From NCBI GenBank assembly GCA_947062475.1, contig CAMSQA010000003.1, positions 31,990 to 95,989 of the forward strand: a DNA stretch of 64,000 nucleotides. The letters are read 5' to 3'. The DNA is from an uncultured Clostridia bacterium. Lineage in GTDB: Bacteria > Bacillota > Clostridia > Christensenellales > UBA1242. Made by a program: the position numbers and the translations under genes. The notes below the pieces were generated by a model. That model saw nothing but the letters and a program-made list of their open reading frames with translations. It ran no database searches and had not been told where the DNA came from. This document shows, piece by piece, positions 6,750-64,000 of the stretch. Each line of letters begins with the position of its first letter. Positions within the stretch are counted from its first letter, which is position 1.

Positions 6750-6761
6750 AACTTTTTCCTC

Positions 6762-7655
6762 CTATCTATAAAATTTCATAAAGTATTCTTCAAGACTCTC
6801 TTTATTATGACGAAAATCAGATATCTTTCTTTTTGAGAGTGCATTTACAAGCAGGTTTATGTTCTTGTCATTGATAGAGACAACAATTTCTGACTTTGTT
6901 TCTGACAAAATCTGCAACTTTTCAAGCTTGCTGATTGACAAACTGAACTTCTCTCTTTCTTGTTCGCTAACAAAAATTATAGAATAGACCTTTTCATTGT
7001 TGTGCGTTAGGCTTGAAGTGGCAAATTGACTGACAATTTTGCCCTCTTTGATGATTGCAATACGATCGCATGTTGCTTCGACTTCACTGAAAATATGACT
7101 TGAAAGAAGAATTGTTTTGCCCCTCTTTTTTTCTTGTTTGACAAATTCAATAAACTTTTGCTGCATTTCAAAATCAAGTCCGCTGGTCGGCTCATCTAAA
7201 ATCAATATATCTCCATCATTTAAAAATGCTGCCACGATTGCAAGTTTTCTTTTATCACCAAGACTCATTTTTTTTGTTTCGCCTTCAGGATTTAATTCAA
7301 AATATTCAAGAAGAAAGTTTAGACGCTTATCATCTTTTACGCCCTTAAGTTTTTTCATCATATCAATAAATTGCCAACCTGACAATCCGCTCGGCAATGC
7401 AATTTCACCAGGAAGGTATCCAACATTTGCCATAAACTTGTCAAAATGAGAAAAACTTTCAAGACCAAGAATTTTAGTTTCTCCACTGTCAGGATGGCTG
7501 AAGCCTAAAAGATGGCGGATTGTGGTTGATTTTCCTGCTCCATTTGGCCCTAAAAATCCAAAGACTTCGCCTTCGTCAATCTTAAAAGAAACATCAAAAA
7601 CGCCGCGACCATGTCCATAATCTTTTGTGAGGTTGTTTACTTCAATTTTTGCCAT
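6762..7655 (-). CDS. ABC transporter ATP-binding protein (second ATPase of the operon)
   Basis: Walker A GPNGAGKST, signature MSLGDKRK, Walker B ILILDEPTSGLD. GGAGG RBS. Confidence 0.9.
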   Translation of the reverse strand: MAKIEVNNLTKDYGHGRGVFDVSFKIDEGEVFGFLGPNGAGKSTTIRHLLGFSHPDSGETKILGLESFSHFDKFMANVGYLPGEIALPSGLSGWQFIDMMKKLKGVKDDKRLNFLLEYFELNPEGETKKMSLGDKRKLAIVAAFLNDGDILILDEPTSGLDFEMQQKFIEFVKQEKKRGKTILLSSHIFSEVEATCDRIAIIKEGKIVSQFATSSLTHNNEKVYSIIFVSEQEREKFSLSISKLEKLQILSETKSEIVVSINDKNINLLVNALSKRKISDFRHNKESLEEYFMKFYR

Positions 7656-7884
7656 GAATCTCCTCCTAAGTAATAATAATTTTTAGACATATGTATATTT
7701 TTTTGACATCAGTATAATTATATGGTAAAATATTATAAAACTCAACTTTTATAATGGACGACAAAAGATTATTTGTAAAATAGTTGACAAAAAGTAAAAT
7801 TATGTCGAAAAAAAAGTTATTTAATTTGAATTTTTTAGGTTATAAAAAATAATTGAAGTGAGATAAAACAAGGGAGAAAATTTT

Positions 7885-8457
7885 ATGGAAAAAGAGGGAG
7901 ATTTGAGAATAAGAAGGACGAAGAAACTTTTGCTTGACTCGCTTATGCAACTTTTGCAAGAACATGCTTTTGAAAAAATTGGTGTCAACGATATATGTGA
8001 AAGAGCAATGGTGCATAGGGCAACATTTTATAATCATTTTGACGACAAATATGATTTGTTTAATTATGCTCTTTCCCAACTTGAAGATGAAATGTATTTA
8101 AGCACAATTGAAAAAGGAAGTTATACCTCCTCTGTGGAAATGTATTGCAGTATTTTGAGAAGTGTTTTTGATTTTATTGAGCAAAACAAATTAAAATTCA
8201 AACTTATAATAGATAATAATTCATCAAAATTGATATTTTTAATTTCGACAACAGTAAAAAGAAGTATAACTTATTTGATCAAACAAAATGAACTTAATCA
8301 AGAGTTTGTTGTGCCTCTTAATATCATAATTGACTTTTTTATGGGAGGAGTCACCTTTCTCTGCCTTGACTGGATTCAGTCAGATCTCTATTCTAAAGAA
8401 GAAATCATAAAATTTTTAGAGGTGTTTATTCAAAATGAAGAATTCTTAAAAAAATAG
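7885..8457 (+). CDS. TetR/AcrR family transcriptional regulator
   Basis: N-terminal HTH, RRTKKLLLDSLMQLLQEHAFEKIGVNDICERAMVHRATFYNHFDDKYDL. Divergent from the ABC operon. Confidence 0.85.
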   Translation: MEKEGDLRIRRTKKLLLDSLMQLLQEHAFEKIGVNDICERAMVHRATFYNHFDDKYDLFNYALSQLEDEMYLSTIEKGSYTSSVEMYCSILRSVFDFIEQNKLKFKLIIDNNSSKLIFLISTTVKRSITYLIKQNELNQEFVVPLNIIIDFFMGGVTFLCLDWIQSDLYSKEEIIKFLEVFIQNEEFLKK

Positions 8458-8468
8458 GCAACAACTGC

Positions 8469-8876
8469 CTATTTTTTATTATTAAAATCTTCATAATTAC
8501 ATTTCTTGATTGGGTGTGAAAGCAATTCCTCATCAAAATAGACCCTTTCAAGAAAATTAAAAGAAGAGACGCATCTTGAAGGATTGACGCCATGAAAGGA
8601 ACGAAAAGCTCGAGAGAAACCTTCACGTGTGTTGTAACCACATGCGATGGCTACATCAATAATACGATCATTTTTTATCATAAAAACTGCCTCACTTAGC
8701 CTTCTTTTTCTGATATAATCTTTTATGGTATAGCCAACAAAAAGTTCAAACACTGGGTTTGCAACCGAACTATTGAGTTCTAAAATTTGATATATCTTCT
8801 TATTGTCATGATCTTCAAACAAATTGTTTTCGATGTAGTCTATTGCAGAATTTAATCTTTTATAAATATTTATCAT
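8469..8876 (-). CDS. AraC family transcriptional regulator (small, MarA/SoxS-size)
   Basis: Double HTH: ELNSSVANPVFELFVGYTIKDYIRKRRLSEA...DVAIACGYNTREGFSRAFRSFHGVNPS. The start was trimmed to M24 (MINIYKRL). Confidence 0.8.
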   Translation of the reverse strand: MINIYKRLNSAIDYIENNLFEDHDNKKIYQILELNSSVANPVFELFVGYTIKDYIRKRRLSEAVFMIKNDRIIDVAIACGYNTREGFSRAFRSFHGVNPSRCVSSFNFLERVYFDEELLSHPIKKCNYEDFNNKK

Positions 8877-8989
8877 ATATTTTATTATAAGAAAAATAAA
8901 AACCTTGTCAAGAAAAAATGACATTTCTAAAATAAAAAAAGTCATTCAATTGCATTTTTGTTATGTTAAAATATATGCGAGGTAAAAAA

Positions 8990-9493
8990 ATGGAACAAAA
9001 ATTTCAATTTCATGGAAAAAGTTATGATTTCTCAGAGATGTGTATTGTTGTTGGCAAGGCTTTAGAAGAGAAGGTGAAAAGTTTCAAAGAGATGAAAGAA
9101 GTTCTTGTCAAATTGAAACAAGATTTAAGATTTTGCTCTATAAGCAAAGGATCTGATTCGCACGTTAAAGCGGTATTGAAAAAATATAATAGACTAATGG
9201 CACTTACTGATGAGCATGCAGTTGAGTCTATAAAAAAAATGAAAAAATGTTTATATACCGAAAATTATCCACTCATATTAGAGGGGATTGAAAAAGATTT
9301 AGACCGTCATAATGATATGCTTCTTACTCTTAACAGACATTTGCATAAATATATAATAGAAGTTGTTGACAAACGTATTGTTGAAGTGGCTTTAGAGCAT
9401 GACTTAATGATTATTGATATATCACTTAAAACTCTTGATATGCAAAAAGAATTTATCAGTGGCGAAGCTAAAGAATGTGAACATATAATGTAA
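8990..9493 (+). CDS. Hypothetical helical protein, paralog A
   Basis: GAGGT RBS + ATG 8990 (MEQKFQFHGKSYDF...). Paralogous to the 9589 gene, including its upstream region. Confidence 0.65.
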   Translation: MEQKFQFHGKSYDFSEMCIVVGKALEEKVKSFKEMKEVLVKLKQDLRFCSISKGSDSHVKAVLKKYNRLMALTDEHAVESIKKMKKCLYTENYPLILEGIEKDLDRHNDMLLTLNRHLHKYIIEVVDKRIVEVALEHDLMIIDISLKTLDMQKEFISGEAKECEHIM

Positions 9494-9588
9494 AAGTTTA
9501 GTAAAAAGATAAAAAGTGATATTTTTGAGACAAATAAAGTCACTCAAGGCTCTGCAAATTATGCTAAAATATTTGTGAGGTGAAAGCT

Positions 9589-10095
9589 ATGGCACAAAAA
9601 TTTAAATTCATCGGTGAAGAATATTCCAAAGAGGAACTTGCAAAAGTTCTCAAAGAGTCTTTGCTGTCAATGAAAAAAGATATTGATAAAAGACATAGTG
9701 TATATCTTGAAGCGAAAGAACTTTTAAAGGGTGGAGCAATTGTTGAAAACTCTTATGAGATAAATATGCTTTTGAATTTGAATAAAGAGCTGGCAGATTT
9801 TATAGCCAGCACTCACAAAAGAACTATTGAAAGATTGAAAGATGATATAAAAAATCATGATATCGCACATTTTGCAAAGATGGTAGAGAGAGATGTTGAA
9901 AAGCATCAAGAAACTCTTAGTATGCTTGATTTAAATATAGCAGATATATTAAATGAAGAAATCAATCAACAAATCCTTATGGCAACAATAAATAATGATA
10001 TGAATATTATGGAATTTGTTTTAGACAAACTTCAACTTCAAAATGAATTTGTTGATGAGCTTTCTTCTTCAAGAGAAGACGGAATGTCATTATAA
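9589..10095 (+). CDS. Hypothetical helical protein, paralog B
   Basis: GAGGTG RBS + ATG 9589 (MAQKFKFIGEEYSKEEL...). Same N-terminal pattern and similar length to 8990-9493. Confidence 0.65.
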   Translation: MAQKFKFIGEEYSKEELAKVLKESLLSMKKDIDKRHSVYLEAKELLKGGAIVENSYEINMLLNLNKELADFIASTHKRTIERLKDDIKNHDIAHFAKMVERDVEKHQETLSMLDLNIADILNEEINQQILMATINNDMNIMEFVLDKLQLQNEFVDELSSSREDGMSL

Positions 10096-10311
10096 AAATA
10101 AATCAAAATTTTAGTATACTTTCAGATAAAATATTCATAGATTGTCTATGTATAACTTTTTAAGGCTTGTTTTTCTAGGTTTAAAAAGATTACAATGTGA
10201 ATAGATGTTTTTAAATTCCCTTATGTTTTAAGCTATTTTTTAAGCATTACAAAAGGGAATAGTTTCAGTATTAAAGGCAGATAAAGGGAAATAATTACAA
10301 AGGGAGTTAAT

Positions 10312-10485
10312 ATGAAAGGCAAAAACAAGCTAAGTTCAGAATATGACATGATAAATCAGTATATTGAAGAGGCGATTAGTCTCGTTTTAAAGAAAAAAGA
10401 AATTGAGTGCATAAGAGTGCTTGAAAGTTTGAAACTTTTCAGTAGAAGCGTTTTGATGTCTCACTCAATTTTTGATGATGATTAA
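10312..10485 (+). CDS. Small hypothetical protein (57 aa)
   Basis: Below the track cutoff. AAGGGAG RBS (10300-10306) then ATG 10312: MKGKNKLSSEYDMINQYIEEAISLVLKKKEIECIRVLESLKLFSRSVLMSHSIFDDD. Confidence 0.4.
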   Translation: MKGKNKLSSEYDMINQYIEEAISLVLKKKEIECIRVLESLKLFSRSVLMSHSIFDDD

Positions 10486-10604
10486 TTTTTATTTTAAATG
10501 ATATTTTTAAAAAGAGTTTTAAATAAACCCTTTTTTAAATTTAATATTGACTTACTATGAATTTTTTGTATTATATTAATATAACAAATAAAAGGAATTG
10601 TATT

Positions 10605-10964
10605 ATGAATGATATTTTGGGAAATCCACTTTTAAAATCATTGAAGAAATTTAAATTAAGTTTTCAGTTGGCACTGTCAAAATATGGCTTTAAGGCTTTT
10701 TATGTTGCAGCGGCTATCGCAACTGAAGTGGTTGGTATTGAAAAAGAGCCATCATATATACCAGGATCTGCGAGTGTAATTATGGCAATGGGAATTGCTT
10801 TGGATAATGAGATCGACAAATTAAATCCTGAAAAAATTCAATATCAAAATCAACTTAAAGAAGAAATTGATAATCTTAACAAAAAACCTATTATAGACAT
10901 AGTCAAACCAGAAGATGAAATTGAAGAGTTTGATGAAGAAAAAGAATATGAGAGCGAAATTTAA
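10605..10964 (+). CDS. Hypothetical protein with an acidic C-terminus
   Basis: AAGGAA RBS before ATG 10605 (MNDILGNPLLK...). No family recognised. Confidence 0.5.
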   Translation: MNDILGNPLLKSLKKFKLSFQLALSKYGFKAFYVAAAIATEVVGIEKEPSYIPGSASVIMAMGIALDNEIDKLNPEKIQYQNQLKEEIDNLNKKPIIDIVKPEDEIEEFDEEKEYESEI

Positions 10965-11127
10965 ATTCTATTTACATTAAAGCGGATGATAACTGAATTG
11001 TCTGCTTTTTTTGATATAAAAAGACAATTTTCTTGCAGTTTCCAAAAATTTCTTGCCTTTTAAAGTTGAATAGTGATCAAAAATGCGTTATAATTTAAAT
11101 TAAGAAAACTACAAAGCGAGGTTTTGC

Positions 11128-12477
11128 ATGAAGTCATGCGAGCAATATATCTATTGTAACAATCTCTTTGAAAGAGGTGATAAAATTGGAGTTGGGTGCA
11201 GTGGAGGAAGTGATTCTATTGCACTGCTTCATTTTTTGTCAAAAAATCAGGATAAATTTGGCATTGAAGTTTCAGTAATTCATGTGGATCACAGCATTCG
11301 AGAAAATAGTGGAAACGATTGTGAGTTTGTCAGAGATTTTGCTGAAAAACTTGGTCTGCGATTTCATAGTTTTAAAATTGATGTGCCAAAACTTGCAAAA
11401 GAGGATAAAAAAAGTCTCGAAACTGCTGCAAGAGAGGCAAGAGCAAAGGTTTTCAATGCTCTTGTTGAACGCGGAGTGGTAAATAAAATTGCTCTAGCTC
11501 ATCATAAAAATGATCAAGCAGAGACTATTCTTATGCATCTTTTCAGAGGTTCTGGTCTTGCTGGTGCAAGAGGAATGGAATCTGTCAGTGGATATTTTAT
11601 CAGACCTATGCTTGATACAGGTAAGGATGAAATTTTAAAGTATATTAAAAAAAATAAACTTAGATTTGTCGATGATTACACAAACGTAGACAATGTTTAC
11701 AATCGCAATTATGTGCGTAATGTGATTATGCCAAACATTCTTTCTCGCTGGCCAAATGCAATTGATTCTATCGTAAATTTTGGTAGATCGGCAAGTGAGG
11801 ATGATGAATTTATAAACAGTCAAATTTATCAAGATGCGGTGATATTTGAAAAGGCAGTTGCAAAAATACCTACGTCATATTTTGTCTATTCATCTTCAAT
11901 TGTGTCGAGAATAATTTTTAAAGCGATGAAGGGGCTGGGAGTGAACAAAGATATTGAAAGAAGGCATATCTCACTTATCAGTAAACTTGCACTAAATGGC
12001 GATAATGGAAACAAACTTAATTTGCCATTTGGATTTTGTGCTGTCAAAGAATATGATTATATCACCATTCATACAGGGCACGCCGCTCCAAAGAAGGATA
12101 AAGAATTTCAGCGAGCATTTAGGAGCGGCGAATTTAATTTGGCAGGTTTTGGCAGGGTGATTATCAAAAAAGTGAAGAAGGAAAATGTCTTTCAAAGTGA
12201 TGAAAACACTCTCTTCATTGATGGCGAGAAGTTGCCTAAAGGTGTAGTATGGCGTTTTAGACAAGAGGGTGATAAGTTTTGCAAGTTTGGCGGCGGAATG
12301 AAAAAATTAAAATGTTTTTTAATTGATAAAAAAGTGCCAGCAAGACTTAGAGATTTTATTCCTGTGCTTGCAAGTGAAGATGAGGTATTTGTCGTTGCTG
12401 GAATGGAAATTTCAGAAAAAATAAAGGTGACAGAAGATAGCAATAAAATTTATATGATAAAAGCTATACCTAGTTAA
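11128..12477 (+). CDS. tilS: tRNA(Ile)-lysidine synthase
   Basis: PP-loop GVGCSGGSDSIALLHFL, then IHVDHSIR and ALAHHKNDQAETILMHLFRGSGLAG. Length is typical for TilS. Confidence 0.92.
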   Translation: MKSCEQYIYCNNLFERGDKIGVGCSGGSDSIALLHFLSKNQDKFGIEVSVIHVDHSIRENSGNDCEFVRDFAEKLGLRFHSFKIDVPKLAKEDKKSLETAAREARAKVFNALVERGVVNKIALAHHKNDQAETILMHLFRGSGLAGARGMESVSGYFIRPMLDTGKDEILKYIKKNKLRFVDDYTNVDNVYNRNYVRNVIMPNILSRWPNAIDSIVNFGRSASEDDEFINSQIYQDAVIFEKAVAKIPTSYFVYSSSIVSRIIFKAMKGLGVNKDIERRHISLISKLALNGDNGNKLNLPFGFCAVKEYDYITIHTGHAAPKKDKEFQRAFRSGEFNLAGFGRVIIKKVKKENVFQSDENTLFIDGEKLPKGVVWRFRQEGDKFCKFGGGMKKLKCFLIDKKVPARLRDFIPVLASEDEVFVVAGMEISEKIKVTEDSNKIYMIKAIPS

Positions 12478-12548
12478 AAATTAATTTTATATAATTGTTT
12501 ATATAAGAATTAATTGAATAATCATAAAATTTTTATGACAACTTTAAA

Positions 12549-12582
12549 TGCAGGCGGAATAATTCAATTCGCTTGCATTTTT
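12549..12582 (+). terminator. tilS rho-independent terminator
   Basis: TGCAGGCG (12549-12556) pairs with CGCTTGCA (12570-12577), followed by TTTTT. Confidence 0.7.
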
Positions 12583-12601
12583 GTCTTATATATTGTATAA
12601 T
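12573..12601 (+). promoter_or_regulatory. Sigma-A promoter driving the large ncRNA
   Basis: TTGCAT (12573-12578), 17-nt spacer ending in TG, TATAAT (12596-12601). The predicted TSS at about 12608-12610 coincides with the 5' strand of the closing helix. Confidence 0.7.
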
Positions 12602-12609
12602 CTATTTAT

Positions 12610-13206
12610 AGAAGGTGCAGTATTCTAGTCAGAAAGTTGACTTAGGAAGGTGAAGTAATAGCACCGAAGGGCATATCTGTGAAGTTTCTGGTGCTGGCTT
12701 TGGTTGCCCAAACTGGGGCTGGTGCTGGAAGTTAAGAAATTTGGGCGAGCTGTAATGGCATACAGAAGCCGACCCATTTTTCGTGGAGACCTAGTTTAGG
12801 TGGATGTCAAATCATCTACTTTCTAGGAAGAACCTGCATTGCGATAAAAGTTGTGTGCAGTGTAGCCTGCTTTGAGTGAGTGGTAAGGGATATGGCGTAA
12901 ATGATATAGTTTGTAAAGCGCTTATCAAAGGATATCATTGTCATTGAAATTTCACTTGCAAAACAAGCTAATAAGTCTTCTGCCTGTCAAGGAAAACTTC
13001 TAGACTGTTGCTTATGCAGATACATTGAGGATTATAGTGCGACCTAAGTGGCGATTCGGTGTTATGTCTTGCTTAAAAGGAAACTGCTTAATCGGTGACG
13101 ATGAGTGCGAGAATGGGAAATCCGACCGAACCTATGGCGCAAGGTTTACTCAGTAGATTGCCTTCTAAAAAGGGGAAAGGATAATAAGTCGCTTCCTCTT
13201 TTTTTA
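12610..13206 (+). ncRNA. Large (~560-nt core, ~600 nt with terminator) highly structured ncRNA; OLE/ROOL size class, family unresolved
   Basis: It has its own promoter and terminator (stem 13171-13199 + T7), no credible ORF, and visibly higher G+C than the flanks. Closing helix 12610-12617:13159-13166. Nested hairpin CCTAG/CTAGG (12790-94:12823-27) with GTGGATG/CATCTAC (12800-06:12813-19). Perfect 8-bp AATGATAT/ATATCATT (12900-07:12932-39). CTGTA/TACAG (12750-54:12761-65). GNRA hairpin ATCG-GTGA-CGAT (13091-13102). Long-range TTCGGT/ACCGAA (13055-60:13125-30). Confidence 0.75.
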
Positions 13207-52848: not shown

Positions 52849-52923
52849 GCGTCCATAGTGAAATGGATATCACATAAGTCTTCGGAACTTAGATTTCGGG
52901 TTCGAGCCCTGATGGACGCACCA
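52849..52923 (+). tRNA. tRNA-Arg (anticodon TCG), CCA encoded
   Basis: Manual cloverleaf: acceptor GCGTCCA/TGGACGC, D arm GTGA/TCAC, anticodon stem TAAGT/ACTTA with loop CTTCGGA, T arm TCGGG-TTCGAGC-CCTGA (one G-U), ACCA. Confidence 0.9.
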
Positions 52924-53186
52924 AACATATTGTATAAAAAGTCTTTTTTAAGAAAGGCAAAACCATACTGCATGCAGTGGTGTTTGATTGATTTTGACAC
53001 TGGATACAGTGGTGGAAGAAAAGATAAGACAAAAATTTTGAAAGGAATAAGAAAGTGGCGTCTTTTCTGAATTGTGGGGATTTGATTTTTTGATAAAATA
53101 ATCAAAATTTTATAGAAATCAAAAATCAACCTTTGATTTGACGACAGTGATTGTTTGATTTCTTGAAAATCAAAAAAAATAAAAAC
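52898..53186 (+). repeat. Cassette-boundary module copy 1 (right half only, fused to the genuine tRNA-Arg 3' end)
   Basis: Shares with copies 2 and 3 the core ATAT(T/G)GTATAAAAAGTCTTTTTT (52926-52949), hairpins (52975-79:52998-53002; 53017-24:53061-68), TTTGATTTGACGAC (53132-45) and ATCAAA iterons. Confidence 0.85.
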
Positions 53187-53841: not shown

Positions 53842-53845
53842 TTTT

Positions 53846-54276
53846 TTGATTTTCGCAAAATCAAAAGCGCGATCGCAAAATCAAAGTTTGATTTTTATTT
53901 TGATTATTTTGATTATTTTTGATTTTTTAGACCAAAAATTGCCGTCGCGAAATCAAAACTGAAAGATCAAAAATTCGACTTTGTTGTTAGTTGACACAAA
54001 TATATGGTATAAAAAGTCTTTTTTTGAAAAAACTTTGGCACACTGTTTGCAGTGGTTTGATAACGGTTTTGCCACTGGATACGGGGTTGAGAGGAAAAAC
54101 AGGCATAAAATTTTGAAAAAGTTGAAAAGTTAATGTCTTTTCTGGCAATGTAGAATTTTGAATTTTTAATATAATAATCAAAATTTTAAAGAAATCAAAA
54201 ATCAAAGTTTGATTTCGCGACAGAAACTTTGATTTCGAAGAAAAATCAAAATAAATCAAAAAATCAAATTACAAAA
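53846..54276 (+). repeat. Cassette-boundary module copy 2 (complete, ~430 bp)
   Basis: Left arm with palindromes TGATTTTCGCAAAATCA and AAAATCAAAGTTTGATTTT. GTCGCGAAATCAAA (53944-57). Degenerate tRNA 3'-end copy + core (53974-54025). Hairpins (54050-55:54072-77; 54092-101:54134-43). TTTGATTTCGCGAC (54208-21). About 17 ATCAAA/TTTGAT iterons. Confidence 0.85.
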
Positions 54277-54287
54277 GGAGTGCAACT

Positions 54288-54959
54288 ATGAGAAAATGGT
54301 TTAAAGGTTTGAGCGATAAAAAGAAAAAGATAATATCAATTTCATTGACAATCATTGGAATTATTTTTTGTTGTGTGGGAATTGAAAATTATTATTTAAT
54401 TATACCAGGACTTGTTTTTATTGTTCCTGGAATTATTTTTGTTGATTGGTACAATAAAGATAAAAAAGAACAAGAAGATAAAAATATACATAGCGAAATG
54501 GAGAACAATAAGCAAAAAACAGAAGTTCAACAATTTGATGATGAAATAGAAAAAGTTGAAACAACACTCCGCAATGAGAAACCTAATTCAGTACTGAACG
54601 AAGAAAACTTTTTGTATACCCCTCCCGAAGGTTTTGAATTAGTAGATTGGACATATGCAACTACATTAGTTAGAGGATGTAGTAACTATATTGATGAAGA
54701 TTATGAAATTGACATAGATAGCGAGGTAGAAATAATACATGAACCAACAGATAAGTATCCAGAAAATACGTCTATCTATATTGACAATGATAAGGTTGGC
54801 TCTTTGAAACAAGATATGGCAATAGAATGGTATCAGAGGTTTGGAAGTAACTATAATTTTATAGGGCGAGTTGTAGAATATGAGCAAGGAGAATATCCAA
54901 GACTACTGATAGAAATAAAAAAGCCAATTATTAGAAAAATAAAGAAAAAACAAAATTAA
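54288..54959 (+). CDS. Membrane-anchored protein with a HIRAN-like C-terminal domain; cassette 2 cargo
   Basis: AAAGGAG RBS. Two N-terminal TM. C-terminal EVEIIHEPTDKYPENTSIYIDNDKVGSLKQDMAIEWYQRF resembles the HIRAN pattern (EP.N.yD.nAI.V....iGyl). Confidence 0.45.
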   Translation: MRKWFKGLSDKKKKIISISLTIIGIIFCCVGIENYYLIIPGLVFIVPGIIFVDWYNKDKKEQEDKNIHSEMENNKQKTEVQQFDDEIEKVETTLRNEKPNSVLNEENFLYTPPEGFELVDWTYATTLVRGCSNYIDEDYEIDIDSEVEIIHEPTDKYPENTSIYIDNDKVGSLKQDMAIEWYQRFGSNYNFIGRVVEYEQGEYPRLLIEIKKPIIRKIKKKQN

Positions 54960-55241: not shown

Positions 55242-56027
55242 ATGGAAGATTTTGAGAACTGTCCTTTATGTGGACATAAAACTGCAAGTATTCTGGGAAC
55301 ACAAGAAGGATTTAATTGGAGCGATGTTAGATGTAAGAATTGCTTTGATTATGTTATTCATCAAAGTGTTTTATTTCAAATTAGTGATGGTGATAAAAAA
55401 GAAATTAATAAACGAAAAAGACTTAATTGTGTTTACAAATTTCTAATGGAAAAGCCATTATTTAATAATAGCTATCTATATCAATTTTTTTATGAAGAAC
55501 AAACTAAAAATATGGAAACATCAGATCCAAGACGTGTAAATGTTGCATCTTTGATGGAAAATCTTCCTTCTAAAACAATTGATAGAATCAATTTTACATT
55601 AAAGAATTTAATTGTTAAATATGATATAGGAAATACGGTTGATGTTAGTGAGATAGATTTTGGATTAGTTCTTATTGACAACGAAAGAGAACTACAGGAA
55701 TTCTTGACTTATTATCAAGGCAAAGATTTGATAAGAATTTTGGAAATGAAGGATGACAAAATTAAAAAATTTTCATTAAATATAAAATCAAAAATTTACT
55801 TGGAGGATGGAGAAAAGTTGAACGAGGAAAAACAAACATTGATTACAAATATAACGAATAATGATAATAGCATAAGTATTGGCGATGTAAAGAATCTTAA
55901 AAAATCTAATATAGGGCAAAATAAAGTTGTTACCGAGAAAGAAACAAAAGTTAATACAGCGTTAGAACTTAATGTTGGCAAAGAGAATAAAAAGGTAGCT
56001 CGAAGAAGTTTTTTTAAGAAAAAGTAA
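55242..56027 (+). CDS. Hypothetical protein with an N-terminal zinc-ribbon
   Basis: AAGGAG RBS. CPLCGH...CKNC four-Cys motif at the N-terminus. Confidence 0.5.
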   Translation: MEDFENCPLCGHKTASILGTQEGFNWSDVRCKNCFDYVIHQSVLFQISDGDKKEINKRKRLNCVYKFLMEKPLFNNSYLYQFFYEEQTKNMETSDPRRVNVASLMENLPSKTIDRINFTLKNLIVKYDIGNTVDVSEIDFGLVLIDNERELQEFLTYYQGKDLIRILEMKDDKIKKFSLNIKSKIYLEDGEKLNEEKQTLITNITNNDNSISIGDVKNLKKSNIGQNKVVTEKETKVNTALELNVGKENKKVARRSFFKKK

Positions 56028-56033
56028 TTGTGA

Positions 56034-56482
56034 ATTTTGATTTTCGCAAAATCAAAACTTCGTCGCGAAATCAAAGTTTGATTTTATTTTTGATTTTTTT
56101 GATTATTTTTGATTTTATGTTAAAATAAACTCGTCGCAAAATCAAAACTGAAAAATCAAAAAACCGACTTCGTTGTTAGTTGACACAAATATATTGTATA
56201 AAAAGTCTTTTTTGAGAAAGGCTTTTTTCATTGCCAAAACCACAATATGCAGGGGTTTAGCATCAAAATTTACACTGCATACAGACCGACATTGAAAAGG
56301 AAGAAAAATTTTTAAATTTTAAGTCTTATTTCCTCTCATCACTGGGCTCGACAAGTTTTGATTTTTACATAAAATTTTGATTTTTTTACCGAAAATCAAA
56401 AATCAAATTTTTGATTTCGCGACAGCCAGCTTTTGATTTCCTTAAAAAATCAAAAATAATCAAAATAAATCAAAAAATCAAA
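56034..56482 (+). repeat. Cassette-boundary module copy 3 (complete, ~450 bp)
   Basis: About 85% identical by eye to the copy 2 left arm. GTCGCGAAATCAAA (56062-75) and GTCGCAAAATCAAA (56133-46). Degenerate tRNA 3' end + core (56164-56214). Hairpin (56298-307:56325-34). TTTGATTTCGCGAC (56410-23). Iterons. Confidence 0.85.
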
Positions 56483-56527
56483 GTCTAATATTTTTTCAAT
56501 TATTTAGGATGCTTTAACTTAAATTTA

Positions 56528-56536
56528 TGCTATAAT
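56528..56536 (+). promoter_or_regulatory. Extended -10 promoter element for the 56568 operon
   Basis: TGcTATAAT (56528-56536), about 30 nt upstream of the AGGAGAG RBS. Confidence 0.5.
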
Positions 56537-56567
56537 GAATTAATAATTATTCAGGAGAGTGCACTAT

Positions 56568-59500
56568 ATGAAACTAATCACAAGCGTACAAATTCAGGAG
56601 TTTTTTAAGGGAACTAGTAGGCGGGGACAGGAGATTTTACCTGAGTTAGTAAGAAAACTTATCCGACTAAGTATAAATAGGAATGGTTCAGTCCATTTCC
56701 CATGTGGCGATGCAATTTACACAAAGGGATGGGACGGAACTGTTCAAGATAATACTATAACAAATGAATATGTGCCAATTTCTAATTCTTTTTGGGAGAT
56801 GGGAACTAATGCTCGTACATTAAACAAAATTAAGGCTGATTATGATAAAAGAAAAATACTTGCTACAAATTATAATAAGAGAGAATATACCTATGTAGCT
56901 GTAACTCCTAAAATATTGGATAGTTGTAAGAAGTTGGAACTTGAAGAGAAGTGTAATAAAGAAAAAATTTTTAAAATTGTTAAGATTATCGACGCAAATG
57001 ATTTAGAATGTTGGATAGAGTACCATATAGATATTGCGTTGTGGTTATTATCTGAATTTAATAAAAAATTTGAAGATATAGGTTTATCATTATTAGTTGA
57101 TGAATGGAACAAAATTTTAGAGTTTGCAGAACCACAGTTAACTTATGATGTAATTGTGAGTGGGAATGAAGCGAAGGCACATAAGTTTTGTCAAGACATT
57201 TCTTGTTTGCAAGGAGATAATATCTATTCAATTTCTTCGCCTTATGGCAAGGAGCCAGCATTTCTCTTTGCTATGGCAAGTTTAATCCAAAATGTGGATA
57301 TATCCATACAAGAAAAGGTTGTTATTGCAAAAAAACAAAATGATTTAGATATTATAAATGTGTGCTGTACTGGAAAAATAATTTTAATTATGTTTAATTG
57401 TTCTGATGATAAAATTAAAATTGGGAACAATAATATTTATGTAGTATTCAATTCGTTGTATAGTGACGATTTAAAATTAGATTATATTAGTTTTGTAGAT
57501 TTTGCAAACGCATTAAAATCTATGAAAATACCGTCTGGCATCACATATAATGTAGCGAAAATGGTAGAATGTAATATAAGTGTATTAAAAAGGTTATATG
57601 CACGAAATCCTTTAGCGAGAATCCCAAAATGGGTTAGGACTAAAGACAGATTGGAACTTATTCCATTAATGTTAATGTCAGAAATAGATCTTGAAGATGC
57701 AAGCAGCATTGAAATACTAAAAACAATAGTCGGATCTAATTATGACGAATATATTGAGAAATTAGACTTTTGGGCGGAGATGGATGATGCTCCCGTATTG
57801 CGTTTTGAGAATTGCTATACGATAAATTCTAGAAAAGAATGTTTTGACTTAATGCAAATTAATATTTATTCAATTAAGGTGGGAAAATTAGAAAAAATTA
57901 TCAAAGCTATATTGTTAAATGAAGATAATGATTCGTCTATAGATGGAATGGTAAACGAGTTTGATCATAATGGAATGATTTGGCATGGCAAAGTTATCAA
58001 CAATATCTTAGATACTTTTATCATTCTTTCGATGAAAAATGCAAAATTCCAAAGACATTATGATTATTTTGTACAAGAAATTTTTAATAGATGCAGTAGT
58101 GATATTAACATGTTAGAGAGATCTTCAAAGTATTTCAGTAAATTAGCAGAATTATCACCGTATGCTATTATCAATTATGTTAAGGGTATGTTATACGATA
58201 ACAATACTTTATTTAGAACATTGCTTGAGGATAAGAGTAAGGGATTTTATAATCATATTAAATGGGCATTGGAGATTTGCCTAAAATTTGAAGACCATGC
58301 TATAGATGCTCTTAGAACGGTGTTAGATTTATATTTTTCTGACATGAAACTTCCCAATTTTGAAAGTTTAAAAGAATTTGTTATACAATGTTTTTCGCCA
58401 ATTTCCACAGGGATAATTCCGATTGCACAAAAATTGAAATTAAATCTCCTGTTTAATAGCATAAATGACTATTATATAGATAAAGCTAAACTTATTGTTA
58501 AAAAGCTAGTAGATGGAGGGGAGAATATTATATCTTATGGTGTATACTATTCGTATAAGTTGCCATATAGAACGCAATCAGATTTATTAATGCAAGACTT
58601 CTATGATACTCAAAAATTGGCTACAAGTTGGTTGATTTCAAATTCAGAGATCCATGAAAAAGCTGAACTTCTAAAAAATATTTTGTCAACAATTCATACA
58701 AATAGTTTAGAGTCTATCACTGAAAAGCTTGCAGAGTTTAAGGAGTTTTTACCTAAGGATATAGATGATAAGATAAAAAGTGAAATAAATTTAGTTGCAT
58801 TGAAAAATATCCATGATATTAAACAGTTTCGTTCTAATTGGACTCATGAGCAAGCATTTTTGCCTTTGTTAGAAGACTTGTATAGCTTTACATTACCAAA
58901 AGATGTTTATATGAAGTATCAATATATATTTAAATTAGAAGGATTCCCGATACTAGACCCTCCAGATTTTGATAGCGATAGAGATAATTGGTATGAAATG
59001 GATAGTGTAAAAAGATGGGATGAGACTCAAAATGCTATTCAAACACTTATTTCGGAATATGGGGATGGTATCATTACTAGAATAATTGAAGATGCTAGTG
59101 GTAAACGAACATATAGATTTTGGTCAATATTATATGATTTTTCAGCCAATCATGATAGGGATTTTAAGAAATTTTTAGAGCTTAAGAATACTGAAGGGGC
59201 CACTGTATATTTACAAAGATATGATGAAAAAAAAGTAATAGATCAAGTTAAAAATTGTGACCAAAGACATAAAGAGTTTTTATATTCTGTATTACCAATT
59301 AATGAATCGCTTATCAAATATTTTAATGGGAAAGAAGATGAAATATTATATTGGAAGAATAAAAGATTTCTATTGCAAGATGTCCCTTGCCGCGAACAAG
59401 TTTTTGAGAAATCGCTTATTTTTAATCCGATTGTTTTGTTAGATTCATATGCCTATAGGAATAAGGATTTTTCTTACGAAGATGGAATAAAGATTTTAAA

Positions 59501-60284
59501 GGCGGTGGTAGAAAAGAGCAAAATCGAAAAGCTTTTCACAGGATCAAATGCCCATGAAGAATATGCTTTACAGGAAATAATTACAAATATGGATAAAAGA
59601 TTCTATACGGATGAATTAGCATTGCTTGAGTTTCAACTTTTGCCATTTTTGCTTAATGGATATATTCAAGATTACCCGATGGGAGTAAAAAATTATTTTT
59701 GGAAAAATCCACAGGAGTTAGGTAAGTTGTTGTGTAAATTGTATAAGGAAAGAGGAAACTTTGATATAAATAGTGTTGGGGCAAAAATTTACTATCAAGG
59801 AATTGTAAACTTAAATAAAAGCTGTTTAATTCCAAGGGAGTATATAGTACAAAAGAAAGATGATTTACAAGAGTGGGTGCAAAGAGTAATTGAGGTTGTG
59901 GATGAAAGTGAAGTTGAAATCAAAAAATATATTGTTCAATCGATAGTTTCCATTATGGCATTATGTCCAGAGGATTCTGTGAATAAAATATGGCCAACAA
60001 GAGAAGTTGCAAAAATACTAGAAGATATAGACAAATTAAAACTATTTGAGAGGGATGCTGTTTCGTCATCATTTTATTTTGCGAAAATTAATTCTCAAGG
60101 TATGAGATGCGTTGGCAATGGAGATTATGAACACAATGAATCTCTAAAATATAAACAGTTTGCAAATGAATATCGTGCAATATATCCTGTTGTATCAAAG
60201 GCTCTTGACTTTTTATCGGATTCCTTTGCCAGAACGGGAGATGAGGATAAAAGGAACGCTGTGCGAGGTAGTTATTATGTTTAA
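56568..60284 (+). CDS. Large (1238 aa) hypothetical protein: conserved-looking N-terminal domain + long alpha-helical repeat region; no P-loop seen
   Basis: AGGAGAG RBS, 8 nt, ATG 56568. The N-terminus, ..GQEILPELVRKLIRLS...FPCGDAIYTKGWDGTV...SFWEMGTN...KADYDKRK, could be a nuclease-like (D...E) domain. I found no GxxxxGK[ST] motif. Confidence 0.6.
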   Translation: MKLITSVQIQEFFKGTSRRGQEILPELVRKLIRLSINRNGSVHFPCGDAIYTKGWDGTVQDNTITNEYVPISNSFWEMGTNARTLNKIKADYDKRKILATNYNKREYTYVAVTPKILDSCKKLELEEKCNKEKIFKIVKIIDANDLECWIEYHIDIALWLLSEFNKKFEDIGLSLLVDEWNKILEFAEPQLTYDVIVSGNEAKAHKFCQDISCLQGDNIYSISSPYGKEPAFLFAMASLIQNVDISIQEKVVIAKKQNDLDIINVCCTGKIILIMFNCSDDKIKIGNNNIYVVFNSLYSDDLKLDYISFVDFANALKSMKIPSGITYNVAKMVECNISVLKRLYARNPLARIPKWVRTKDRLELIPLMLMSEIDLEDASSIEILKTIVGSNYDEYIEKLDFWAEMDDAPVLRFENCYTINSRKECFDLMQINIYSIKVGKLEKIIKAILLNEDNDSSIDGMVNEFDHNGMIWHGKVINNILDTFIILSMKNAKFQRHYDYFVQEIFNRCSSDINMLERSSKYFSKLAELSPYAIINYVKGMLYDNNTLFRTLLEDKSKGFYNHIKWALEICLKFEDHAIDALRTVLDLYFSDMKLPNFESLKEFVIQCFSPISTGIIPIAQKLKLNLLFNSINDYYIDKAKLIVKKLVDGGENIISYGVYYSYKLPYRTQSDLLMQDFYDTQKLATSWLISNSEIHEKAELLKNILSTIHTNSLESITEKLAEFKEFLPKDIDDKIKSEINLVALKNIHDIKQFRSNWTHEQAFLPLLEDLYSFTLPKDVYMKYQYIFKLEGFPILDPPDFDSDRDNWYEMDSVKRWDETQNAIQTLISEYGDGIITRIIEDASGKRTYRFWSILYDFSANHDRDFKKFLELKNTEGATVYLQRYDEKKVIDQVKNCDQRHKEFLYSVLPINESLIKYFNGKEDEILYWKNKRFLLQDVPCREQVFEKSLIFNPIVLLDSYAYRNKDFSYEDGIKILKAVVEKSKIEKLFTGSNAHEEYALQEIITNMDKRFYTDELALLEFQLLPFLLNGYIQDYPMGVKNYFWKNPQELGKLLCKLYKERGNFDINSVGAKIYYQGIVNLNKSCLIPREYIVQKKDDLQEWVQRVIEVVDESEVEIKKYIVQSIVSIMALCPEDSVNKIWPTREVAKILEDIDKLKLFERDAVSSSFYFAKINSQGMRCVGNGDYEHNESLKYKQFANEYRAIYPVVSKALDFLSDSFARTGDEDKRNAVRGSYYV

Positions 60285-60786
60285 TAGTGAAGAGGGTAAA
60301 AGAGAAATGGCATACATTATTACTCGGTATGCTTACAGAGATACAGCACTTGAATATTATCATTCAAAATCAATAATGATGGATATGTTGTTTTATAAAA
60401 AGATTTATAATATAGTCTTTGCTAAATTAAAAAAAGTAGGCTTATTACACAAATATATTGAAAACTATCAAGTAGATGAACTTAAAAATAAAGAAGATTA
60501 TGAAAATTTACTGGCTACAGTGCCAGAAGAACTCAAATTTAAGTTTATGAGATATTTTATTGAAGTTACTGAGCTTTTGCGAGAGTATTTTGAATTTAGT
60601 TGGGACCCTGCGGAAATTGTTGATTGTAATTTGTACGGAAAAAGTCCTGCTTATTATGTTTTATCAGGGCATTTCACTGAGTGTTGTAAAGATGGCGCAA
60701 TTTTAGATGATAAAACAATGTGCTACATTAATAAAGATATACATAACAGAATTTACACCTTGTTGATAAATGGATATTTCAGTTAA
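60277..60786 (+). CDS. Hypothetical 169-aa protein, translationally coupled to the 1238-aa gene
   Basis: ATG 60277 overlaps the upstream stop by 8 nt (ATGTTTAA). MFNSEEGKREMAYIITRYAYRDTALEYYHS... The track start at 60160 lies inside the upstream gene. Confidence 0.6.
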   Translation: MFNSEEGKREMAYIITRYAYRDTALEYYHSKSIMMDMLFYKKIYNIVFAKLKKVGLLHKYIENYQVDELKNKEDYENLLATVPEELKFKFMRYFIEVTELLREYFEFSWDPAEIVDCNLYGKSPAYYVLSGHFTECCKDGAILDDKTMCYINKDIHNRIYTLLINGYFS

Positions 60787-60787
60787 A

Positions 60788-61024
60788 CTATTTGAATAGT
60801 TCTTTGCAGACCTTATATGTAATTTCAATAATATGGTCAATTTCAAGAGAATGAAGTTGACCTTTTTCATTGTCTAAGTTTATATATTCACGCCATTTTT
60901 CTTTTGAAAAACCTTTTGTGAATTTATCTTCTAGCTCACAAATTTTGTTTAATTGAAGTTGTGTTTCGGCACTTAGTTTTTCCGATTCAATTATGTTCAT
61001 AACAATTTCTATAATATGTTTCAT
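60788..61024 (-). CDS. Small hypothetical protein (78 aa), divergent from the Fic gene
   Basis: GGAGG RBS on the minus strand. Helical. Its stop is 1 nt from the convergent 60277-60786 gene. Confidence 0.5.
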   Translation of the reverse strand: MKHIIEIVMNIIESEKLSAETQLQLNKICELEDKFTKGFSKEKWREYINLDNEKGQLHSLEIDHIIEITYKVCKELFK

Positions 61025-61137: not shown

Positions 61138-61166
61138 TTGACTTTTTGCCGATATCGGTATATAAT
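61138..61166 (+). promoter_or_regulatory. Fic gene promoter
   Basis: TTGACT (61138-43), 17 nt, TATAAT (61161-66). This excludes the track's TTG start at 61138. Confidence 0.65.
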
Positions 61167-61194
61167 AAAGTTAATAAATTTAGGAGAAAAATCA

Positions 61195-62085
61195 GTGAAA
61201 TTTTTATCAGTTGCAGAGATTGCTAAAAAATGGGGAATGAGTGATAGGTCTGTTAGGAACTATTGTGCGCAAGGACGCATTAAAGGAGTCTTCCTAACTG
61301 GAAAAACTTGGAACATTCCAGCAGATGCAGTTAAACCAGAAAGAGAGAATAAAGCAAAATTTAGTGATAATGAACTTTTGAATGTATTGAAAGAACAAAA
61401 AGATATGAAGCTTCAAGGTGGAATCTACCACAAAACTCAAATTGAATTGACTTACAATTCGAACCATATCGAAGGCAGTAAACTTACAGAAGACCAAACA
61501 AGATTTATCTTTGAAACCAATACAATTGGTGTAGTAAATGAAACGATCAATATTGATGATGTTATTGAAACTTCAAACCACTTTAAATGTATTGACTATA
61601 TTATAGATAATGCAAAGAAATCTTTGACCGGATTAATGATAAAAGAATTGCACTTCATCTTAAAAACTGGCACTTCGGATAGTCGCAAAGATTGGTTTAA
61701 TGTTGGAGCATACAAAAAACTCCCCAACGAAGTTGGTGGTGAAGAAACCTGTAAACCAGAAGATGTTGCAACTGAAATGAAAAAACTGCTTGAAACTTAC
61801 AACGCAAAGAAAATGAAAACCCTAGAAGATATAATAGAGTTTCACCAGCACTTTGAAAAAATCCATCCTTTCCAAGATGGTAACGGCAGAGTCGGACGCC
61901 TTATTGTATTCAAAGAGTGCTTGGCAAACAACATCGTTCCATTTATAATAGATGACAACTTAAAATTTTACTACTATCGCGGATTAAAAGAATGGAACAA
62001 TGAACGAGGTTATCTATGCGATACCTGCCTGTCAGCACAGGATAAATATAAGCAGTGGTTGGAGTATTTTGAGATTAAGTTTTAA
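61195..62085 (+). CDS. Fic/DOC family protein (class II, internal inhibitory helix) with an N-terminal HTH
   Basis: AGGAG RBS + GTG 61195. HTH LSVAEIAKKWGMSDRSVRNYCAQGRI. Inhibitory motif SNHIEG (S/TxxxE[G/N]). Fic motif HPFQDGNGRVGR. Confidence 0.88.
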   Translation: MKFLSVAEIAKKWGMSDRSVRNYCAQGRIKGVFLTGKTWNIPADAVKPERENKAKFSDNELLNVLKEQKDMKLQGGIYHKTQIELTYNSNHIEGSKLTEDQTRFIFETNTIGVVNETINIDDVIETSNHFKCIDYIIDNAKKSLTGLMIKELHFILKTGTSDSRKDWFNVGAYKKLPNEVGGEETCKPEDVATEMKKLLETYNAKKMKTLEDIIEFHQHFEKIHPFQDGNGRVGRLIVFKECLANNIVPFIIDDNLKFYYYRGLKEWNNERGYLCDTCLSAQDKYKQWLEYFEIKF

Positions 62086-62125: not shown

Positions 62126-64000
62126 ATGCAAAATATATTAAAAAAATACTGTCTAGAAGACAACGAAAATGGAATTATATTAATTGATATGCCCACTGGA
62201 AGTGGTAAGACGCACAATGTTATAGAGTTTATATATAAAAACTATGAAAACTTTGCCAAAAAAGTATTTTTTATTACTCCATTGAAAAAGAATCTAGGAT
62301 ATGATGACTTGAGAAAGAGATTTATTGAAAATGGGAAAGAAGAAATCTTTAATAAGAATGTATTATATATAAAAAGTAATATGGATATGTTGATAGAAAA
62401 CTTTAACGAAGCATATCAAGAAATACCTGATAAAATTAAAAGTGATAAAACAACAAAACATGTTAAAACACTTATAAAAATAATAGATTCCAATGTAAAT
62501 TCAGATTTTAAGACTGAAGCAATAGAAAATTTAAGAGAAGAATGGGAACCTAAATTTAGATCTGTTTTAGAAAATTATGTTATTTTTAACGATAACGGAG
62601 AAAAAAGAAACTACGCAGAACGTTTAAGATTTGTTGAGGAAAACAATCCATGGATTATAAAACTATACCCTTCAGTAATCACAGATAAAGCTAAAATCAT
62701 ATTTATGACCGTGGATAAGTTTTTGTCAATGAACTCAACTATAATTAAACCTTCTTATACTATTCTTAGTGATGATATAGTAAAGGATTCAATTATTTTC
62801 ATAGATGAGTTTGATTCAGCGAAAGAAAATATCCTAAGCAATATAATAAAAAGTTCGCTTAATAACAAAATTGGATTGTTAGATCTTTTTCATTTAATAT
62901 ATGCCGGTTTGACCGTTTGTGATTTTACCAAAAAATTAATGACTCCATCTCAGTATAATATTGAAAAGAAGAAAAATTCTACTAATTATTATAATCCTAT
63001 TGAGATTATTGATAAATTTAAGAAAAGGGCTGATGAAATTAAGGATAAGTATAACTTGCAATTTTTACATAAGTTAATTGGTAATCCCAAAGATAATGCG
63101 TATTTTATGTTTCAGGACTACAGATTTATTAGTATACTGCCATCACAAAATAATTATCTATTGTTAAAAACTAACAAAACTGACAAAATCAATCAAATAG
63201 AACCTATGCCGAATAGAGAAGAAAATAAAGATGAGCTGAAAGATCTTTTATTTGACATTAAGAACTTTATAAATTATTTTCAAATAGGGGTTGGATTTAT
63301 AGCCAATAATTATAAACAGCTCAAGATTGACTTAAAAGAAGATATGAATTTAATTTCGGACGATGCATGTGTAAGAACGGTACTTGCGGAATTTGGTATA
63401 GAAGGGAAATATTTAAGTTATTTAACGAAAGCCATCGTTAGAAGAAAGAAAAGCAAAGAAATGAGTAGTAATTCATTATCTGATGATTTAGATTTCTCTT
63501 TTAATGAAAAAGGTTTTAGATTTTATAGTATTATCGATAGTGACACTCACGACACACAATCAAAAATTCAATATGTAACAGTTGACGACACTCCGGAAAA
63601 AATATTATTGGGCTTATGTAATAAAGCAAAAGTGGTCGGTATTTCAGCTTCTTCATCACTAAGGACATCAACGGGTAATTTTGACATAAAATATTTAGAA
63701 ATTAAATTAGGTAGAAAATTTAAACATTTGAGCAAAGAAGAAAGAAAACAGCTAGAAGAATATTTTGATAGGCAAACCTGTGATTATGGCAAAGTAAATA
63801 TATTCACAAAAGAAATAAACGTTAATGAACTTAATTTGGAAGATAACATAACTAAATTTAGTGAAAATATTCAAGTTATAATAAATAAAAAATTTCAGAC
63901 ATTAAGAGGTTATATAAGAATAAGGTATATTAAATTATTTTTATGTATGCTGGAATTCTTAAAAGATAATAATTTGTATTCCTATTTGTTCTTAACTAGT
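62126..64000 (+). CDS. SF2 helicase/translocase-like protein; the 3' end runs off the window
   Basis: Open-ended, so absent from the track. ATG 62126 is followed by 625 sense codons to the window end. Motif I DMPTGSGKTH, motif Ia FFITPLKKNL, motif II IIFIDEFDS. Confidence 0.7.
   Translation, partial: MQNILKKYCLEDNENGIILIDMPTGSGKTHNVIEFIYKNYENFAKKVFFITPLKKNLGYDDLRKRFIENGKEEIFNKNVLYIKSNMDMLIENFNEAYQEIPDKIKSDKTTKHVKTLIKIIDSNVNSDFKTEAIENLREEWEPKFRSVLENYVIFNDNGEKRNYAERLRFVEENNPWIIKLYPSVITDKAKIIFMTVDKFLSMNSTIIKPSYTILSDDIVKDSIIFIDEFDSAKENILSNIIKSSLNNKIGLLDLFHLIYAGLTVCDFTKKLMTPSQYNIEKKKNSTNYYNPIEIIDKFKKRADEIKDKYNLQFLHKLIGNPKDNAYFMFQDYRFISILPSQNNYLLLKTNKTDKINQIEPMPNREENKDELKDLLFDIKNFINYFQIGVGFIANNYKQLKIDLKEDMNLISDDACVRTVLAEFGIEGKYLSYLTKAIVRRKKSKEMSSNSLSDDLDFSFNEKGFRFYSIIDSDTHDTQSKIQYVTVDDTPEKILLGLCNKAKVVGISASSSLRTSTGNFDIKYLEIKLGRKFKHLSKEERKQLEEYFDRQTCDYGKVNIFTKEINVNELNLEDNITKFSENIQVIINKKFQTLRGYIRIRYIKLFLCMLEFLKDNNLYSYLFLTS

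Follow-up and report, generated by a model that had tools for sequence, protein, structure and literature searches.

A 64,000-nucleotide stretch of contig CAMSQA010000003.1 from an uncultured Clostridia bacterium (positions 31,990 to 95,989 of the forward strand; hereafter the window) carries a gene for a protein of 1238 amino acids whose end overlaps a gene for a protein of 169 amino acids, which raises the question of what the two genes encode and whether they belong together. An initial annotation, made from the letters of the sequence, had described the large protein as one of an unrecognised kind and had put the pair forward as a dedicated defence or conflict module. We find that the small gene is an unrelated passenger and not a conserved partner of the large gene. 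The large gene, in contrast, is likely to encode a single-gene NLR-like anti-phage receptor that is distantly related to Avs8A, a reading to which we assign a probability of about 0.7. Such a receptor would consist of a nuclease (residues 1-165), a STAND-type module (residues ~170-430) and a sensor of about 800 residues. The two genes and the predicted parts of the large protein are located as follows.

56568-60284, forward strand: large gene, an open reading frame read from the sequence, 1238 amino acids from its ATG; likely Avs8-like sensor-nuclease with a degenerate STAND module
56568-57062, forward strand: residues 1-165, predicted PD-(D/E)xK (Mrr/MspJI-like) nuclease effector domain from structure prediction and Foldseek, with putative catalysis
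57075-57857, forward strand: residues ~170-430, STAND-type nucleotide-binding oligomerisation domain (NOD), made up of a nucleotide-binding domain (NBD), a helical domain (HD) and a winged-helix domain (WHD), by Foldseek, lacking Walker A or B
57873-60281, forward strand: residues ~436-1238, presumed helical sensor region delimited by conservation, the sensor role being suggested by Avs proteins
60277-60786, forward strand: small gene, 169 amino acids, Clostridia-restricted helical protein

Predicted fold and family of the large protein

As proposed in the initial annotation, the N-terminal part was subjected to structure prediction and Foldseek comparison. An AlphaFold2 (AF2) model of residues 1-480, built on an alignment of 16 sequences, reached a pLDDT of 84.9 and a pTM of 0.80. 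The top matches of this model in the Protein Data Bank (PDB) were Avs3 (8dgc_B, 6e-6) and Avs4 (8dgf_A, 2e-5), and further matches were obtained for SAMD9, CED-4, Roq1, Apaf-1, NRC4 and Dark. Avs3 and Avs4 (AVAST types 3 and 4; 8dgc, 8dgf) combine a nuclease with an NBD-HD-WHD module in the same order as residues 1-480, and the tripartite Avs layout of an N-terminal effector, a central NBD-HD-WHD (AF2/Foldseek) and some 800 further residues fits the whole protein. Both are single-polypeptide sensors of conserved phage proteins, recognising terminase and portal, and they tetramerise and cut DNA. In contrast to the window protein, to which they show no similarity at the sequence level, they possess intact Walker motifs and bind ATP.

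Residues 1-165 are predicted to adopt an alpha-beta-beta-beta-alpha-beta-alpha-beta topology. The nuclease-like character that had been suspected for this domain is borne out by its fold, which matches the PD-(D/E)xK nuclease MspJI (4f0p_B, probability 1.00 over 174 columns) and EcoT38I (7edb_B) as well as the nuclease-NOD parts of Avs3 and Avs4. The motifs GWDG, FWEMGT and KADYDKRK, already singled out in the initial annotation, are present and contain D56, E77, K87, D91 and R95, whose conservation (each 97-99% in an alignment of 127 sequences) is the highest among the polar positions of the protein. In the AF2 model, D56 immediately precedes beta2, E77 lies where beta3 ends, and K87 where the helix after it starts. 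The spacing of 21 from D56 to E77 is what we take to be the spacing from D334 to Q355 in MspJI (D-x20-(E/Q)). While the fold is like that of MspJI- and Mrr-type restriction nucleases, the window protein differs from these enzymes in that it lacks an SRA-like or other DNA-reading domain and has its nuclease fused to a NOD and a sensor region.

The following segment, residues ~170-430, is modelled as an alpha/beta domain built on a parallel sheet, to which a small helical domain and then a winged helix bearing a beta-hairpin are joined. It had previously been counted as part of about 1000 residues of helical repeat, an assignment that does not hold for this NBD-HD-WHD segment; the presumed helical region begins at residue ~436, and its conserved positions include LAEASP (E528, P531), P611, W929, P1048 and a C-terminal N1175/G1185 motif. 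The absence of a P-loop, as stated before, was confirmed and extends to the whole family: Walker A (GxxxxGK[ST]) is found at the expected NOD position in 0 of 156 members, the window protein included, and no conserved acidic residue follows the Walker-B-equivalent strand in the family. The site after strand 218-223 reads SPYGKEP in the window protein and SxEEA in distant members. As modelled, the P-loop domain is present but its loop is lost, and the large protein is probably nucleotide-independent.

The absence of Walker A and B throughout the family could also be explained by a nuclease-plus-sensor of the Upx or Dsr1 type, in which the middle region would be a mere scaffold and activation would be achieved, e.g., by ligand-induced dimerisation. 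Functional sensors devoid of a STAND NTPase do exist, as Upx (Gao_Upx) is a working sensor with a PD-(D/E)xK nuclease (PMC13601566) and Dsr1 is composed of a sirtuin NADase and the sensor of Avs7 (PMC13581612). Like the window protein, they join a large sensor to an effector domain in the absence of a functional STAND NTPase and set a precedent for nucleotide-independent sensing. However, Upx and Dsr1 lack any NOD fold, whereas the window protein keeps one: its residues 170-430 match the NBD-HD-WHD of Avs3/4, CED-4, Apaf-1, Roq1 and NRC4 with probabilities of 0.84-1.0. Moreover, no PADLOC match to Upx was obtained, and the only model matched by relatives of the window protein is PD-Lambda-4_A. 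We thus regard a scaffold-type protein as improbable and favour an Avs8A-like receptor with a degenerate NOD.

The assignment to Avs8A draws on these relatives. When 38 diverse family members were scanned with PADLOC, six of them matched PD-Lambda-4_A (Avs8A). The best alignment (E 6.6e-8) covers residues 638-755 of member P0010, equivalent to 521-632 of the window protein, and positions 556-663 of the model. Residues 635-802 of a Shewanella plasmid protein align to positions 562-726 (E 9.5e-5), and residues 120-180 of member P0006 (119-181 of the window protein) to positions 131-190 (E 0.006). The matches are weak and collinear and fall into two separate regions.

PD-lambda-4 has been renamed Avs8, and Avs8A was described as an Mrr nuclease followed by a STAND P-loop NTPase and a tandem-repeat C-terminus; its affinity for HK97-fold major capsid proteins is nanomolar, and their binding is followed by DNA degradation (bioRxiv 10.1101/2025.07.02.662641). 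Avs8A (E. coli ECOR07 WP_000963924.1) falls into the same size class, with a PADLOC profile of 1283 positions compared to ~1250 residues in the window family, and its parts occur in the same order, i.e., N-terminal Mrr-type PD-(D/E)xK nuclease, STAND module and long repeat sensor. Degenerate Walker motifs are likewise seen in KpAvs8, where both Walker A and Walker B are affected, 'suggesting a lack of ATPase activity' in the words of a 2026 Avs survey (PMC13581612). EcAvs8A is a P-loop NTPase, whereas the window family is entirely without Walker A. In addition, PD-Lambda-4 as currently modelled has been reported only in Proteobacteria (bioRxiv 10.1101/2024.10.26.620412), whereas the window family is also present in Clostridia and in one Chryseobacterium genome (Bacteroidota). 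Based on the fold and on the weak hidden Markov model (HMM) matches in relatives, the most fitting place for the window protein is, tentatively, that of a very distant relative of Avs8A devoid of Walker motifs, and the description as a protein of unrecognised kind can be given up.

The family itself is large. In an exhaustive HMMER search, the number of 50%-identity cluster representatives came to 2269 at a threshold of E <= 1e-3 and to 1339 at the stricter E <= 1e-10, overturning the impression of a rare family that a word-indexed search with 15 relatives had given. Full-length relatives among the 150 best matches measure ~1150-1380 residues. Within PHROGs, the large protein matches phrog_18693 (function unknown, 1258 positions) at 5e-31. 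No STAND, NACHT or NB-ARC match was found for it in Pfam or NCBIfam, scans of IMG/VR with both window proteins yielded nothing, and accession searches of the literature and of paper supplements gave no matches. The only match from the Pfam, NCBIfam and PADLOC scans of the two window proteins, to hemE at E 0.008, was dismissed as far below the cutoff of that family, and phmmer and profile matches among PDB sequences (RepB, PUM-HD and a designed four-helix bundle) were at chance level.

Several observations weigh against the assignment as an Avs8A-like receptor. PD-Lambda-4_A is not matched by the window protein itself, and a comparison with PADLOC v2, which the initial annotation had called for, returned 0 matches at E-values up to 1, as did Pfam and NCBIfam; profiles of the family found nothing among PDB sequences. 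The link to the Avs proteins is drawn from a predicted fold with low TM-scores and from weak HMM matches in relatives. Global TM-scores of the fold matches range from 0.25 to 0.34, and such low values would be expected for a multi-domain comparison, leaving fold-level evidence rather than proof. This evidence is confined to residues 1-480 of 1238, the C-terminal 760 residues lying outside the AF2 model. Canonical Avs proteins require Walker A for defence, as seen, e.g., with EcAvs2 K348A (PMC13601566), and a Walker-less module might be non-functional or work differently. Finally, the canonical (D/E)xK lysine is absent from beta3. The position of the Lys in the (E/Q)xK motif of MspJI- and Mrr-type nucleases is taken by an invariant Gly79, with an invariant K87 on the following helix, so that catalysis would have to rely on K87. 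Judging from the model, it is plausible that K87 substitutes for the beta3 lysine; among the structural arguments for the proposed mechanism, this unorthodox active site is the weakest.

The small gene and the question of a gene pair

The second part of the question concerns the relation of the two genes. In this AT-rich region (~29% GC), the following signals were identified around them.

56528-56536, forward strand: TGCTATAAT, an extended -10-like box 5' of the large gene, by direct reading
56553-56559, forward strand: AGGAGAG, Shine-Dalgarno-like, 8 nucleotides 5' of the large-gene ATG (56568)
60835-60872, forward strand: terminator-like hairpin, spanning 60835-60862, and T-run, 49 nucleotides past the small-gene stop and inside a convergent open reading frame of 78 codons (60788-61024)

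For the large protein, an alternative in-frame GTG at 56559 would give 1241 residues. The reported overlap of 8 nucleotides was confirmed, as 56568-60284 and 60277-60786 share ATGTTTAA, in which the small-gene ATG and the large-gene TAA overlap. The sequence GAGGT precedes the small-gene ATG by 7 nucleotides. Since the 14 small-protein homologues share one N-terminus, MFN..., the ATG at 60277 is the real start of the small gene, and not the TTG at 60160. The promoter that had been assigned to the pair is retained in part: the TGCTATAAT box is present and lies in a segment unique to the third of three non-coding repeat modules (see below), beyond the repeated part, but it is a consensus match alone and, for want of a recognisable -35 hexamer, was left unlisted by a promoter scan. 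A terminator scan detected no terminator-like site between the two genes and one after the small gene, which makes co-transcription and coupled translation of both genes plausible in this genome. The hairpin at 60835-60872 is the likely end of a bicistronic transcript; the scan found two such sites against 1.8 expected, so that the hairpin itself is weak evidence.

The overlap in ATGTTTAA and the missing terminator, which make co-expression likely here, would suit a dedicated two-gene module in which the small protein serves as regulator, antitoxin or adaptor. PD-lambda-4/Avs8, too, was first defined as a two-gene operon of A and B with a small gene downstream, as in the window, and in other loci the small gene often trails an unrelated gene at a gap of 8-17 nucleotides. 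The distribution of both families, determined by tblastn, argues against such a module. Both genes occurred together in 0 of 50 loci with a relative of the large protein, drawn from metagenomes, genomes, plasmids and one E. coli chromosome, and in 0 of 14 loci with a relative of the small protein. The initial annotation had itself named the lack of co-occurrence in other genomes as an outcome that would refute a defence module, and its proposal for the pair is not upheld. Elsewhere, the small gene is either solitary, behind a gap of 130-170 nucleotides, or follows unrelated proteins, being positioned 8 nucleotides after the gene of a 363-residue membrane protein in one case and downstream of a 189-residue GNAT-like protein in another. 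A polymorphic toxin/immunity-like link was considered for these two upstream proteins and rejected, as they resemble no part of the large protein. Homology at the DNA level with the nearest small-gene locus (84%) extends from 60277 to 60787, i.e., over the open reading frame alone, and stops exactly at its ends, which identifies the gene overlap as a local junction. The small protein matches no PADLOC model, PD-Lambda-4_B included, and has no detectable relation to Avs8B. Avs8B is, furthermore, dispensable for Avs8 defence (bioRxiv 10.1101/2025.07.02.662641). Taken together, a dedicated module of both genes appears quite improbable, and an overlap of start and stop codons alone is insufficient to establish a functional gene pair. 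Nor did the large gene show a recurrent neighbour of any other family across its loci, where the adjacent genes include a serine recombinase, an HNH protein, membrane proteins and fused or adjacent helix-turn-helix (HTH) domains.

As to the small protein itself, the view that it belongs to no known family still stands, whereas the same statement about the large protein falls with the Avs architecture of the latter. The 14 homologues of the small protein are 50-80% identical to it and were seen only in Clostridia-type metagenome-assembled genomes (MAGs). Its AF2 model (pLDDT 87) is helical, and the sequence contains an internal duplication (MDMxFYKKIY and KTMCYINKDIHNRIY). Foldseek comparison with PDB and BFVD returned no match below E=2, and Pfam, NCBIfam, PADLOC and PHROGs no family match. 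A HEPN-like R-x7-H motif was dropped, as its spacing lies outside Rx4-6H and it has no fold support.

At locus L012/L013 (1-7181), a homologue of the small gene directly follows a DISARM-like set and is itself followed by genes for an integrase and a reverse transcriptase. The set comprises a NERD/helicase, a DEAD/Helicase_C protein of 1145 residues, a DUF1998/MZB protein and a DNA methylase. The small gene thus also travels in mobile defence islands that lack the large gene. At locus L009, a metallo-beta-lactamase-fold protein with a match to the Pfam family Anti-Pycsar_Apyc1 (9217-9954) is encoded 700 nucleotides downstream of the closest small-gene homologue, in a chromosomal region of otherwise miscellaneous enzymes.

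Genomic setting and distribution of the family

The surroundings of the two genes in the window contain the following features.

52849-52923: tRNA-Arg, upstream of the large gene
60788-61024, reverse strand: open reading frame of 78 codons, convergent with the small gene and divergent from the Fic gene, no family match
61138-62085, forward strand: HTH-Fic protein (PADLOC candidate system PDC-S04 2e-112, SoFic 4e-21)
62126-64000, forward strand: ResIII/superfamily 2 helicase running off the window, with a DdmD-like match at 7.6e-11

The island position at a tRNA and the Fic and helicase neighbours agree with the initial annotation, and the PDC-S04-type Fic protein and the DdmD-like helicase place the large gene in a defence island. 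The 78-codon frame may encode a Fic-associated small protein or may not be a gene. Relatives of the large gene have comparable neighbours: the one in Chryseobacterium adjoins Gabija, an nSTAND protein and an RT-PRTase system, another an ABC-ATPase, DUF2971 and an SLFN-type helicase, and a third a HinfI restriction-modification system. Others were found near resolvases or recombinases, on conjugative plasmids and, in one case, bordering an integrated conjugative element. With its relatives in such defence-island contexts, an anti-phage sensor role, as had been suggested, is very likely for the large protein.

Upstream of the large gene, three homologous non-coding modules were observed at 52922-53176, 53842-54289 and 56026-56503, which are ~70% identical over ~300 nucleotides. 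The first begins right at the 3' end of the tRNA-Arg, and each is located directly 5' of a forward-strand gene, namely a Peptidase_S51 gene, an open reading frame of 223 codons and the large gene. Modules 2 and 3 contain TTGACA-17-TATAAA and a conserved hairpin and are flanked by inverted TGATTTT/AAAATCA arrays with arms of 43 nucleotides, 303 nucleotides apart. The modules have no family match in Rfam and could represent elements resembling miniature inverted-repeat transposable elements, or cassette boundaries. Elsewhere in the window, a full-length OLE (ornate large extremophilic) RNA is encoded at 12596-13180 on the forward strand (388 bits, E 2e-110). OLE RNA is known mainly from anaerobic Firmicutes, in line with a Clostridia-like origin of the DNA.

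Members of the large-protein family come from Clostridia MAGs, from Chryseobacterium and from the chromosome of E. coli HS, and plasmid-borne members occur in Rhizobium, Cupriavidus, Shewanella and Arthrobacter. Many of the proteobacterial members carry an extra N-terminal XRE-type HTH of 70-110 residues, which the window protein lacks. Three of these HTH-fused members, each given with its coordinates in the respective locus, are listed here.

8596-12693 of locus L065: E. coli HS (NC_009800.1), WP_000128902.1
152-4264 of locus L018: Shewanella baltica pS19502
6668-10738 of locus L019: Rhizobium tropici plasmid

In a blastn search of E. coli genomes, the only hit was to an HTH-fused family member, in strain HS; its gene comes after one for a PIN-domain protein, at the margin of an integrated conjugative element. 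HTH-fused members of 1356-1370 residues are labelled 'HigA family addiction module antitoxin' or 'HTH transcriptional regulator' by the NCBI because of their N-terminal HTH, and these labels are misleading as they reflect the first ~100 residues. A non-immune function as transcriptional regulator, antitoxin or DNA-repair/restriction-type housekeeping nuclease, for which the HTH of many proteobacterial members and the PIN-domain neighbour in E. coli HS might be cited, is highly improbable, as the HTH is an add-on in a subset and the sole basis of the NCBI labels, the distribution is patchy and tied to islands and plasmids, and architecture and fold are of the Avs type.

Proposed mechanism and implications

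For the Avs8A-like receptor, analogy to Avs3, Avs4, Avs7 and Avs8 suggests the following mechanism. The C-terminal sensor would bind a conserved phage protein made during infection. Since Avs8 senses the HK97-fold major capsid protein, this protein would be the first candidate trigger. Binding of the ligand would relieve autoinhibition and allow the NOD-like module to drive oligomerisation, probably into a tetramer, in an assembly that would probably be driven by the ligand and proceed in the absence of ADP/ATP exchange. The nuclease domains, thereby brought together, would cut DNA indiscriminately, so that infection would be aborted and the infected cell would die or stall. The small gene would be a gene in its own right that has ended up against the 3' end of the large one; in this genome, the two are probably transcribed together and coupled in translation, but the large protein would function without the small one.

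Two further ideas go beyond this mechanism. As a tentative proposal, which we consider possible but rather doubtful, the family might constitute a pseudo-NTPase branch of NLR-like receptors with at least ~1300 clusters at 50% identity, in which the NOD fold was kept, nucleotide binding was lost and assembly became purely ligand-driven. The branch would span Clostridia MAGs, a Chryseobacterium genome (Bacteroidota) and plasmids of Pseudomonadota and Arthrobacter. A weaker suggestion is that the captured 169-residue protein modulates the receptor, at the window locus only.

Although the family counts 2269 cluster representatives, the window protein and most of the sampled members match no model of PADLOC v2, Pfam or NCBIfam, and family members are at present labelled 'hypothetical' or, wrongly, 'HigA antitoxin' or 'HTH regulator'. 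Their recognition as Avs8-like sensor-nucleases would extend this receptor class to Clostridia and to a Chryseobacterium genome (Bacteroidota). The loss of the nucleotide site throughout the family is the one feature worth an experiment. With the NOD fold kept and Walker A and B lost family-wide, these proteins represent a natural experiment on whether nucleotide exchange is dispensable for NLR-type activation, a mode of activation that has so far only been hinted at for KpAvs8.

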